In this document: one piece after another, positions 34,520 through 36,564 of the stretch | How the letters are laid out: the number at the start of each line of letters is the position of its first letter | How positions within the stretch are numbered: the first letter of the stretch is position 1 | Source of the DNA: a virus | Lineage: Duplodnaviria; Heunggongvirae; Uroviricota; Caudoviricetes | Virus record (IMG/VR): IMGVR_UViG_2511231131_000008 | Direction: 5' to 3' (one strand) | Length of the DNA: 46,763 nt | Position numbers and translations under genes: made by a program | The notes under the pieces: model-generated | Databases searched by the model: none | What the model saw: only the letters and a program-made list of their open reading frames with translations | What the model was told of the DNA's origin: nothing

Positions 34520-34798
34520 TTACCTCCAGATCCGTTGCTGGAATGTGCGGGACGGACGCGGTGGGCGTTCGGAGTAAGGAAGCCTGACGGAGATTATCCA
34601 GTGACGGTAGTCGAGGCTGAGGGCTTTCTTAATCTCGTATCCGCGCCTGCGGTAACACTGAATCAGCCATTCAGCCTGTTCTTCGGTGCAGGGGTCGTGC
34701 TGATACCAGTCAGATTTGAATGCATGAGAACGCCGCCCGTGCCTGCTGGCAGGGGCGGCAGAGTTATCCGAATTGTAAAATTTGGTATCGTGCGCCAT
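34520..34798 (-). CDS. Hypothetical protein at the position of rem in the Qin prophage
   Basis: 92 aa from ATG 34798 (MAHDTKFYNSDNSAAPASRHG...); lies between the DUF968 gene and hok. Confidence 0.45.
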   Translation of the reverse strand: MAHDTKFYNSDNSAAPASRHGRRSHAFKSDWYQHDPCTEEQAEWLIQCYRRRGYEIKKALSLDYRHWIISVRLPYSERPPRPSRTFQQRIWR

Positions 34799-34869
34799 CT
34801 GTTTTCTCTGCTGGCGCAGCAGGTGCCAGTTGTTCAGGCTGACGGATGGATTGTAAACCAGAACGACCA

Positions 34870-34897
34870 GAAAAAACAAAACCCGCCGAAGCGGGTT
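34870..34897 (-). terminator. Rho-independent terminator at the 3' end of the hok transcript
   Basis: Minus strand AACCCGCTTCGGCGGGTTTTGTTTTTT about 70 nt downstream of the hok stop. Confidence 0.65.
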
Positions 34898-34965
34898 AAG
34901 TGCGGGTGCGTTGAGGATGCCTGACACATCAGCGGTGGCGAGGGATTTCTCCCCCGCCTGGTCTC

Positions 34966-35121
34966 TTACTCCTCAGGTTCGTAAGCTGTGAAGACAGCGA
35001 CCTCCGTCTGGCCGGTTCGGATTCGTACCTCGCAGAGGTCTTTCCTCGTTACCAGTGCCGTCACTATGACGGTTAAACAGATGACGATCAGGGCGATTAA
35101 CATCGCCTTTTGCTGCTTCAT
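34966..35121 (-). CDS. hokD: Hok/Gef-family type I toxin (HokD/RelF-like)
   Basis: 51 aa MKQQKAMLIALIVICLTVIVTALVTRKDLCEVRIRTGQTEVAVFTAYEPEE matches HokD/RelF as recalled; AGGAG Shine-Dalgarno 9 nt upstream; in-frame upstream ATG at 35178 gives a 70-aa extension. Confidence 0.85.
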   Translation of the reverse strand: MKQQKAMLIALIVICLTVIVTALVTRKDLCEVRIRTGQTEVAVFTAYEPEE

Positions 35122-35364
35122 AGCCTGCTTCTCCTTGCCTTTCGGCACGTAAGAGGCTAACCTACATTTGTGAGACATAGATTGGGCCTCAGATTAATGT
35201 TAAGCGTCTTGCAGGACGCGTAATGTTAACTGGGGCTTTTCTCTATCTGCCTTTTGGTGTTCATGCCTGAGGCAGATAGCCTCAAGCACCCGCAGCAATT
35301 CTACTTAACTCTCGCTTTACCGCAAACCGTTTTTACCCGATATGGGAATTCCCATATCGTAATG

Positions 35365-35578
35365 AATTCAGTTCCCTAGTCGATCCATCAAAAACACAAC
35401 CAGGCAGTAAACGCCCACAACAGCAACAACAGCCAGCGCACCTTCCATTGCCAGTGATATATCATCCGACAAATTCAGTTCCCTAGTCGATCCATCAAAA
35501 ACACAACCAGGCAGTAAACGCCCACAACAGCAACAACAGCCAGCGCACCTTCCATTGCCAGTGATATATCATCCGACA
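35365..35578. repeat. Perfect tandem duplication, 2 x 107 bp
   Basis: Unit aattcagttccctagtcgatccatcaaaaacacaaccaggcag...gtgatatatcatccgaca occurs twice back to back; each unit carries one 34-codon ORF on the minus strand. Confidence 0.85.
35368..35472 (-). CDS. Hypothetical 34-aa membrane peptide, downstream tandem copy (TTG start)
   Basis: Same coding sequence as 35475-35579; the duplication junction replaces ATG with TTG; weak AGGGA Shine-Dalgarno. Confidence 0.3.
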   Translation of the reverse strand: MSDDISLAMEGALAVVAVVGVYCLVVFLMDRLGN

Positions 35579-35579
35579 T
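35475..35579 (-). CDS. Hypothetical 34-aa membrane peptide, upstream tandem copy
   Basis: MSDDISLAMEGALAVVAVVGVYCLVVFLMDRLGN; ATG with strong AAGGAGGG Shine-Dalgarno; one TM helix. Confidence 0.45.
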   Translation of the reverse strand: MSDDISLAMEGALAVVAVVGVYCLVVFLMDRLGN

Positions 35580-35614
35580 ATTCCCTCCTTTGGTGTTAAT
35601 CCCGGCGAACGTTT

Positions 35615-35698
35615 TTACCCCCACCGACAAATAACATATACTAAAAAAGCGATAGCCATAGCAACGCCTGTAATTGCAAATGCTTCAGGCCAGTTCAT
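35615..35698 (-). CDS. Hypothetical 27-aa membrane peptide, translationally coupled to the DUF551 gene
   Basis: MNWPEAFAITGVAMAIAFLVYVICRWG; its ATG overlaps the upstream stop (ATGA). Confidence 0.4.
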   Translation of the reverse strand: MNWPEAFAITGVAMAIAFLVYVICRWG

Positions 35699-36564
35699 TG
35701 GCGCACCTCCTGCGGCGGTTCTGGTAGAGGCATCCAGTGTGATGGTATCCACGACGCACCAGGTATTATCCACCCATCATTAGCGTCAGGATGCCCCGGG
35801 ATGTAAGTCGCCCATTTCATTCGCCAGTCACCTTTCCTGCCAAAATCCCTGGCAACAAGAACGGCTGTTTTGGTATCCGGCATTCGCTCACTACAGCTTA
35901 TCCAACTATCCGGAGTTACCGGATAGTTGCCCGATAGTGCATTCTGCTCCAGTGATGCTTTTACAAACCACGCTGCCTGAACTATAACGCCATGAATCCA
36001 GCGCAAATCAGCATCGCGATCTTTCTTTTTCATCTTTTCGCCACTTAAGGCCTTGCTTATGTGGCTGCGTACCAGGTCTTCATGTAATTCCTTCGCCTCC
36101 TCAATGGTGAAACCACCAGGCAGAAGAGCCGGAGTTACCGGAGAGCTGGTTGACGCTTCCGGGATTTTCCGAAAATTATTGGTTGACGAATCTTTATTTT
36201 CCCGAAAGTTTCCGGACTGAAGCATGGCTTCGCGGCAATCGTTCCAGCCTGTAGCGTATGCAGTCGCTTTGCTGCTGCCTTCAACTGGCGCATCCTGCCA
36301 ATACATTTCTTCCGGCACTATCGGCGCTGGAGGGGCGGCAAATAGATATCCGCCAAAGTCAGGAAGCTCTCTAATGGCCTGTACGAATTTTTGTTTGCCT
36401 ACGTCAACCCCTAATGGGTAATGAGCTATAATCTTTGCCACCGGCTCTGCTTCCAGCGATGCCAGCGCAATCCGTGCCAGTTCCATTTGTTCACCACGGG
36501 TAAGCCCGTTTTCAAGCGGATTTTTAATGAACAATTCAATACGTTCTTTGGTAATAGTGGTCAT
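35695..36564 (-). CDS. DUF551-domain phage protein
   Basis: 289 aa; C-terminal ...WISCSERMPD...GWIIPGASWIPSHWMPLPEPP resembles the DUF551 signature as recalled. Confidence 0.6.
   Translation of the reverse strand: MTTITKERIELFIKNPLENGLTRGEQMELARIALASLEAEPVAKIIAHYPLGVDVGKQKFVQAIRELPDFGGYLFAAPPAPIVPEEMYWQDAPVEGSSKATAYATGWNDCREAMLQSGNFRENKDSSTNNFRKIPEASTSSPVTPALLPGGFTIEEAKELHEDLVRSHISKALSGEKMKKKDRDADLRWIHGVIVQAAWFVKASLEQNALSGNYPVTPDSWISCSERMPDTKTAVLVARDFGRKGDWRMKWATYIPGHPDANDGWIIPGASWIPSHWMPLPEPPQEVRQ

Follow-up and report, generated by a model that had tools for sequence, protein, structure and literature searches.

Several inner-membrane accessory proteins of Escherichia coli, including CydX (encoded after cydAB), KdpF (kdpFABC), AcrZ, and MgtS, have genes at the ends of operons or next to those of their partners and are shorter than 50 amino acids (aa), have one transmembrane helix, and are non-toxic. 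Here we describe two peptides of comparable form encoded on the minus strand of a tailed-phage sequence, IMG/VR record IMGVR_UViG_2511231131_000008 (46,763 nucleotides [nt]; this whole stretch is referred to below as the window), in which three back-to-back open reading frames (ORFs) of 27, 34, and 34 codons lie between a gene with a C-terminal DUF551 domain and the toxin gene hok. Both peptides are small phage-borne membrane proteins. The 27-aa ORF is coupled tightly to the preceding gene, as cydX is appended to cydAB, but there is no sequence similarity to CydX, KdpF, AcrZ, or MgtS, and the micro-peptides of the window are prophage-borne and restricted to phages of Escherichia and Shigella.

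The closest described gene is XECs145 (ECs_5710) of prophage Sp6 in E. coli O157:H7 Sakai, which is the same gene as the 34-aa ORF (WP_001278454.1), with V16I in Sakai, and has the same flanks, i.e., a 27-aa ORF upstream and a palindrome and hok downstream. Two differences are evident. The window has an exact tandem pair, of which the second copy is TTG-started, and the gene model of Hücker et al. (2017, PMC5597208) is a 54-aa ORF read from an upstream non-canonical start, whereas the conserved unit is the 34-aa ORF preceded by a Shine-Dalgarno (SD) sequence.

Two further systems invite comparison. The Hok/Gef family (PF01848), represented by the adjacent hokD and by hokW/sokW of phage 933W, resembles the micro-ORF products in comprising small single-helix membrane peptides from the same prophage neighborhood. 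There is, however, no sequence or profile similarity to Hok/Gef, and no mok-like overlapping frame, fold-back leader, or Sok-like antisense RNA was found. The 34-aa peptide is also not basic but acidic, and growing cells translate it freely. The gene upstream of the 27-aa ORF belongs to the same mosaic family as Ea22 and other exo-xis accessory genes of lambda and Shiga toxin (Stx) phages, in which a shared N-terminal and coiled-coil part is joined to swappable C-terminal domains, including DUF551, but it lies in the nin region and not between exo and xis. A structural study of Ea22 presents this protein without a known partner, and its text does not mention the 27-aa micro-ORF (Goddard et al., 2024, PMC10834534).

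Proposed explanation and core features of the locus

We consider it probable that the locus holds two separate, genuine membrane micro-genes of a lambdoid nin region, together with a recent copy-number accident, and that the products are accessory small inner-membrane proteins. The 27-aa ORF would be a conserved phage micro-gene for a single-helix inner-membrane peptide, made by translational coupling (with its SD in the last codons of the preceding gene and its ATG over the stop of that gene) and acting functionally with that gene. The 34-aa ORF would be a small cargo module, consisting of its own strong SD and the ORF, placed between GGGTAAAAACG repeats upstream of the hok promoter, and it would encode an acidic inner-membrane peptide with a single helix, made while a prophage-carrying strain grows normally. 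The second 34-aa copy would have arisen through one 107-bp tandem duplication in an O55:H7 sub-lineage. Both peptides are predicted to be non-toxic accessory micro-proteins that bind a larger membrane protein, of host or phage, and not pore-forming toxins. An N-out/C-in topology is predicted, as the N-terminus is acidic or neutral and the helix is followed by one Arg only.

The features that carry this proposal are as follows.

35695..36564, minus strand: mosaic Ea22/EaA-type gene with C-terminal DUF551, 289 aa (ORF list)
35704..35710, minus strand: SD GGAGGTG of the 27-aa ORF, within the last codons (…QEVRQ*) of the upstream gene (sequence)
35615..35698, minus strand: 27-codon ORF MNWPEAFAITGVAMAIAFLVYVICRWG, predicted single-pass membrane micro-protein (ORF list, tblastn, hydropathy)
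35583..35590, minus strand: SD AAGGAGGG of 34-aa ORF copy 1 (sequence)
35475..35579, minus strand: 34-codon ORF copy 1, ATG start, MSDDISLAMEGALAVVAVVGVYCLVVFLMDRLGN (RefSeq WP_001278454.1)
35368..35472, minus strand: 34-codon ORF copy 2, TTG start, identical predicted protein (ORF list; RefSeq in DEC5D)
35365..35578, minus strand: exact tandem duplication of 2 x 107 bp, units 35578..35472 and 35471..35365 (Tandem Repeats Finder)

This layout upholds an earlier description made from the letters of the window (the sequence-only reading), which had placed a 27-codon ORF as an ATGA overlap on the DUF551 stop, followed by a 34-codon ORF with a strong SD, and had predicted single-helix hydrophobic peptides. 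Each peptide has one strongly hydrophobic stretch, the best 19-residue Kyte-Doolittle windows of the 34-aa and 27-aa peptides being 2.70 and 2.45. The surrounding gene order is that of a lambdoid prophage nin region (DUF977, DUF4014, DUF551, micro-ORFs, hokD, DUF968, RusA, Q), and the window differs from E. coli O55:H7 DEC5D at 1 base in 6,651.

Identity, translation, and conservation of the 34-aa ORF

The 34-aa peptide is 100% identical to RefSeq protein WP_001278454.1, which is annotated twice in DEC5D, covering both copies, and once in O55:H7 strain CB9615; the exact sequence is called on ~1,000 contigs. The allele of Sakai prophage Sp6, ECs_5710, carries V16I, and a check of the Sp6 locus confirmed that it encodes the XECs145/34-aa allele. 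The gene is thus already known as a hypothetical, RIBOseq-supported small protein, and the statement of the sequence-only reading that the peptides were unrecognized is outdated for the 34-aa ORF.

XECs145 is among the novel genes supported by ribosome profiling (RIBOseq) in Sakai, and the end of its product is the Sakai 34-aa allele (Hücker et al., 2017, PMC5597208). In LB medium, the gene had 79.1 reads per kilobase per million (RPKM) for RNA and 346.1 RPKM for RIBOseq, with a ribosome coverage value (RCV) of 4.35 and a coverage of 0.99; the RCV was 1.14 in the brain heart infusion (BHI) control and 0.01 under cold/osmotic stress (PMC5597208). The same study predicts an inner-membrane location for the product and a σ70 site 173 bp upstream of its XECs145 start, and it counts 2,033 intact homologues in E. 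coli and 0 outside Escherichia/Shigella (PMC5597208). These published data answer, for the Sakai allele, the question of a missing ribosome profiling signal on which the sequence-only reading had made its coding interpretation depend. A literature search found no paper whose main text mentions ECs_5710 or WP_001278454 or prints the sequence of one of the peptides, and transcription start site tables for strain EDL933 held no matching sequence strings.

Conservation of the 34-aa unit was assessed across 5,426 complete E. coli genomes, 673 of which contain it, in 1,467 places and at 90 to 100% identity. To avoid bias, copies were collected through their non-coding flanks (SD and palindrome) with the spacing left free, and the 34-codon frame was intact in all 132 copies so obtained, the sole length variation being a 1-nt indel in the non-coding spacer. 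The 22 variable sites across alleles fall at third (10), first (8), and second (4) codon positions, and the replacements are conservative (V/I, A/V/S, F/L, L/M, I/L, and D/E). The SD is kept, as AAAGGAGGG or AAGGGAGGG, in all alleles, while wobble sites of the ORF vary. The pooled ratio of nonsynonymous to synonymous substitution rates (dN/dS) is 0.24 in frame; the remaining sense frames give 0.73 and 3.9. The unbroken frame in the flank-anchored set, with the dN/dS value and the Sakai RIBOseq signal, bears out the 34-aa ORF as a real coding sequence. Rare read-through or frameshifted C-termini are present in the wider protein collection.

The peptide has no match in Pfam, PHROGs, NCBIfam, or PDB. 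Among 50,697 phage records, tblastn gave no match, a result in which low-complexity filtering may have played a part, and megablast likewise gave no record that covers the module; tblastn against plasmids was also empty.

The 27-aa ORF and its coupling to Ea22/DUF551-type genes

The 27-aa ORF, judged by its conservation, is a conserved, mostly unannotated, and translationally coupled micro-gene. Searched with tblastn, the peptide matched 99 phage records at 52 to 88% identity. Seven phage loci were inspected (Stx2a_WGPS2, two vB_Eco phages, vequintavirus Av-05, JLK-2012, PhiR12_4, and 933W); the 27-codon ORF stands in an ATGA overlap with the upstream stop in six, and the POCJ13 copy is frameshifted. 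A looser pattern scan recovered 209 copies representing 38 distinct peptides, all ending after codon 27; the pattern fixed the end motifs and demanded no stop, and the unbiased tblastn matches show the same motifs. The consensus is M-x-W-P-[ED]-A-…-[YF]-x-[IVL]-[CF]-R-W-G. This fixed length in 209 of 209 copies, with conserved SD and ATGA coupling, sustains the view that the ORF is a real coding sequence.

An SD (GGAGGTG or GGAGGAT) within the last codons of the upstream gene is conserved ahead of the ATGA in all classes of upstream gene, and the C-termini to which the cassette is joined are of at least four kinds: …PEPPQEV[RN]Q (DUF551), …GLISVEDVLR, …NIEQEVN[RQ], and …KKKGMNQ. In the window, DUF551 (Pfam PF04448, E=6e-19) occupies residues 220 to 285 of the upstream 289-aa ORF, which also matches phrog_60; upstream proteins of the Ea22/DUF551 type have no predicted membrane segment. 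In one IMG/VR locus (L170), a 247-aa Ea22-type protein with DUF551 cut to its first 16 residues is fused directly to …RQEVNQ* and the 27-aa ORF. Because the cassette is kept behind this 16-residue remnant, SD and micro-ORF survive deletion of DUF551.

What follows the 27-aa ORF is variable: among the 209 copies, the 34-aa module and hok follow in 87, the hok promoter directly (as in 933W) in 37, and unrelated sequence in 63. Because the downstream context varies in this way, the 27-aa ORF belongs with the Ea22/EaA/DUF551-type gene and not with hok. In-frame loss of 6 nt (25 aa) and W26C occur among the 27-aa alleles beside the 34-aa module (L049/L050 and L053).

The ORF is unannotated in the inspected records of 933W, VT2-Sakai, and Stx2-II and is occasionally called elsewhere; at 27 aa it also falls below the 30-aa ORF cut-off of Hücker et al. 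A strict form of the 27-aa pattern, applied to one-genome-per-species GTDB contigs, was found in E. coli and Shigella flexneri only. CPS-53, the one K-12 prophage covered, carries the DUF551 protein YfdS and has no member of the 27-aa family. Pfam, PHROGs, NCBIfam, and PDB yielded nothing meaningful for the 27-aa peptide either; its matches to PTR2/POT and phrog_38566 were below threshold and were rejected, as they reflect hydrophobic composition.

Tandem duplication and the second copy

Tandem Repeats Finder reports the repeat at 35365-35583 (period 107, 2.0 copies, 99% matches, score 431), and the two 107-nt units are 100% identical to each other. The perfect 107-bp duplication and the TTG-started identical second copy of the sequence-only reading are therefore as described. 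Doubling nt 2-108 (where nt 1 is the A of the ATG) in the single-copy sequence of CB9615 reproduces the window exactly. Slippage at a GAAT microhomology (nt 1-107) was considered as an alternative route and would require an additional A>T change, whereas the blunt doubling of nt 2-108 is exact; the two routes are indistinguishable.

The duplication is a recent strain-level polymorphism because its junction is limited to two O55:H7 genomes and absent from IMG/VR. A 70-nt junction probe was continuous in 2 of the 5,426 complete E. coli genomes, DEC5D and TB182A, and the 651-bp region was matched as one piece in these two strains only, both O55:H7. The 544-bp single-copy form occurs in ~665 genomes, including the sister O55:H7 strains CB9615 and DEC5A, and a flank-anchored scan for the duplicated spacing found none in 2.9 million IMG/VR contigs. 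The "recent event" of the sequence-only reading is thereby placed within one serotype.

The TTG of copy 2 lies 2 nt past the TGA stop of copy 1, with only a weak AGGGA upstream. If copy 2 is translated, this would probably be by termination-reinitiation after the copy 1 stop, and, because of the TTG start and weak SD, it would be expected to add a modest dose at most.

Repeats, palindrome, and linkage to hok

The elements on either side of the 34-aa unit are as follows.

35610..35620, minus strand: direct repeat GGGTAAAAACG, 11 bp, first copy, left edge of the 34-aa module (sequence comparison)
35338..35359, no strand: perfect palindrome CGATATGGGAATTCCCATATCG, 22 bp, 9-bp stem, AATT loop (chance expectation 0.01)
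35328..35338, minus strand: direct repeat GGGTAAAAACG, second copy, right edge of the module, running into the hok promoter (…GTTTGCGG…TAGAAT) (sequence; 933W comparison)
35116..35291, minus strand: hok mRNA leader/Sok antisense region (Rfam RF01794, 121.7 bits, E=6e-29)
34966..35178, minus strand: mok/hok frames, with the Hok toxin proper at 35121..34966 (Pfam PF01848, E=3e-23; RefSeq hokD)

The GGGTAAAAACG copies, at 35620..35610 and 35338..35328, bracket the 34-aa unit(s) and the palindrome, and the first overlaps the stop of the 27-aa ORF. Phages of the 933W type have a single repeat copy, and in 933W this stop leads directly into the hok promoter (…GTAAAACGGTTTGCGG…TAGAAT). Two copies here and one in 933W therefore imply insertion here or deletion in 933W between short direct repeats, and the comparison suggests that the module was gained or lost through short-homology recombination. 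Because the Rfam hok leader/Sok element extends from 35291 to 35116, the micro-ORFs are wholly upstream of the hok transcript. In L048, L100, L130, and L134 (a lineage including, e.g., E. coli O170:H18), the 27-aa ORF, 34-aa ORF, and palindrome occur without hok. In L048, the genes next downstream are an IbrB-like/PAPS-reductase pair, read from the opposite strand.

The palindrome (35338-35359) folds as a hairpin with a 9-bp stem and is followed by GGGUAAAAACGG instead of a U-tract. It was rejected as an intrinsic terminator (no U-tract, absent from the terminator scan) and as a part of the repeat (outside the duplicated unit and occurring independently of the 34-aa ORF). In L185 (~4760-4790), the palindrome, extended to 26 bp, stands between an unrelated gene and the hok promoter without the 34-aa ORF, and in L005 (1604-1625) and L252 (~4584-4605) a KilA-N-type DNA-binding gene contains these 22 nt, which code there for RDMGIPIS. 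Judged by this distribution, the palindrome is a mosaic element in its own right, placed between upstream cargo and hok promoter, and may serve as a joint for mosaic recombination or as a site bound by a protein.

Alternative explanations

Several observations weigh against the proposal of two genuine micro-genes. For the 34-aa ORF, Sakai holds three copies of the unit, so that RIBOseq reads may be multi-mapped; XECs145 as modelled starts 60 nt upstream of the SD-preceded ATG; and Sp6 may lack the repression normal for a prophage. A promoter scan of the coding strand found no site above chance for either ORF. The family is a narrow orphan (phmmer over 1.84 billion representatives gave seven hits, all 76 to 100% identical), and because it is so narrow the selection tests draw on a small number of substitutions. 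A low dN/dS, 0.30, is also obtained for the antisense frame with the same wobble positions, yet that strand is closed there, with no open frame. For the 27-aa ORF, dN/dS in the helix core is 0.40, compared with 0.56 in another sense frame; a common allele near the 34-aa module has an Asp in mid-helix (…AIAIDFLVY…); 10 copies, among the first 38 IMG/VR loci (L010-L047), lose the final WG through a W26-to-stop truncation; and 2 copies are broken.

The ORFs could instead be translated but functionless passengers (proto-genes), hydrophobic frames carried along by mosaic prophage modules and preserved mainly by the youth of the DNA and its spread through recombination, not by any action of the peptides; we regard this as rather unlikely. 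Such passengers would fit an orphan 34-aa family confined to Escherichia/Shigella prophages, at no more than ~10% DNA divergence and absent from all 50,697 deposited phage genomes, as well as a 27-aa ORF that tolerates a helix Asp, C-terminal truncation, and occasional nonsense or frameshift alleles, and a copy 2 left with a TTG start at no obvious cost. They are harder to reconcile with the 132 of 132 intact frames, the third-position excess, the in-frame dN/dS of 0.24, and an SD that is conserved while wobble sites of the ORF vary. For the 27-aa ORF, the length, the end motifs (MxWP[ED]A… and …Y.IC RWG), and the SD and ATGA coupling all persist at 52 to 70% identity, behind at least four different upstream genes and in numerous phage lineages, a vequintavirus among them. 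A more specific assignment of function, decidedly unlikely in this full form, is that the 27-aa peptide is a dedicated membrane partner, co-translated in stoichiometric amounts, of the Ea22/EaA/DUF551-type proteins of lambdoid and Stx phages, tethering or relaying these pro-lysogenic and otherwise soluble proteins to the inner membrane, and that the 34-aa peptide is, separately, membrane cargo of the resident prophage that is expressed there and modulates Hok or blocks superinfection. A role as partner would explain why the cassette of SD, ATGA, and 27 codons is kept whichever C-terminal domain lies upstream.

The position beside hok had led the sequence-only reading to consider the peptides toxin-like. 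Both have the size and hydrophobicity of type I toxins (<60-aa membrane peptides), and as single-helix peptides adjoining hok they could be restrained by an unrecognized antisense or structured RNA and kill or arrest the cell when derepressed, like Hok. An opposite-strand promoter-like site at 35555-35582 (9/12 match) would read antisense over the 34-aa SD, and in the minimum free energy fold of a 150-nt context this SD is base-paired to a U-tract of the 27-aa ORF. We nevertheless find a toxin very improbable. Neither peptide matches Hok/Gef or another toxin family: the 34-aa peptide gave no match in profile scans and the 27-aa peptide only sub-threshold, unrelated ones, while mok/hok scored E=3e-23. 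Type I toxins are typically cationic, whereas the 34-aa peptide has four D/E and one R (net charge -3). Nor is its translation off in normal growth, as it has a strong SD and the Sakai allele is heavily covered by ribosomes in exponentially growing cells (RPKM 346, RCV 4.35 in LB). As to an antisense partner, Rfam finds only the hok leader/Sok element (35116-35291) and no family over the ORFs, the opposite-strand promoter-like sites are at chance (2 vs 1.3 expected), no plus-strand terminator was found, and the fold that would occlude the SD is weak (z = -1.9, 2% of the ensemble) and gone in a shorter context. Neither ORF is obligately linked to hok. That the conserved unit is a regulatory RNA or DNA element for hok (leader peptide/upstream ORF, insulator, or terminator), with the peptides incidental, is scarcely credible. 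The module does directly adjoin the hok promoter on its upstream side and has a perfect 22-bp palindrome at its end, and in L185, where another gene comes first, this palindrome likewise stands ahead of hok. But hok has a promoter of its own, with the 5' end placed at 35291, substitutions follow the codon frame with conservative amino-acid changes, and the module is also found without hok. The palindrome itself lacks a U-tract, is not flagged as a terminator, is separable from the module, and lies outside the duplicated unit.

Neighboring features

RefSeq annotation (prokaryotic genome annotation pipeline, PGAP) cuts the uninterrupted 289-codon DUF551/Ea22-type ORF into a "pseudogene, missing C-terminus" and a short DUF551 coding sequence (DEC5D and CB9615; L001 2237-3106 and L002 2237-3106). 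This split appears to be an artefact of annotating a mosaic protein and not a real disruption.

Downstream of hok, the ORF at 34520-34927 (minus strand) is open for 135 codons from a GTG, of which RefSeq calls the last 92 codons only (WP_001417850.1); its C-terminal 66 residues match phrog_1212. Sub-threshold Rfam matches to isrK (27 bits) and rsmX (21 bits) at 34876-34957 (minus strand) coincide with the 3' end of the hok mRNA and its terminator hairpin (34897-34880) and are probably structure-only resemblances. The plus strand has a 41-aa ORF at 35254-35379, opposite the hok leader, promoter, and palindrome. Its product is similar to the N-terminal part of XECs166, a further novel gene of the RIBOseq study, which comes from another Sakai prophage (Hücker et al., 2017, PMC5597208). 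The RIBOseq signal at XECs166 may simply be abundant Sok RNA.

Implications

For the 34-aa ORF, the analysis joins a RefSeq "hypothetical protein," the RIBOseq-defined XECs145, and a population distribution, and it removes the tempting but unsupported reading of a second toxin next to hok. The duplication is unlikely to be biologically important but is a strain marker of an O55:H7 sub-lineage and provides a natural comparison of one copy with two. For the 27-aa ORF, the analysis indicates that a well-studied accessory region of Stx and lambdoid prophages holds a conserved, coupled 27-codon gene that is missing from the inspected reference annotations. Ea22-type proteins sway the lysis-lysogeny balance of Shiga toxin phages and have so far no known partner, and an obligately co-expressed membrane peptide would be a concrete candidate for one.

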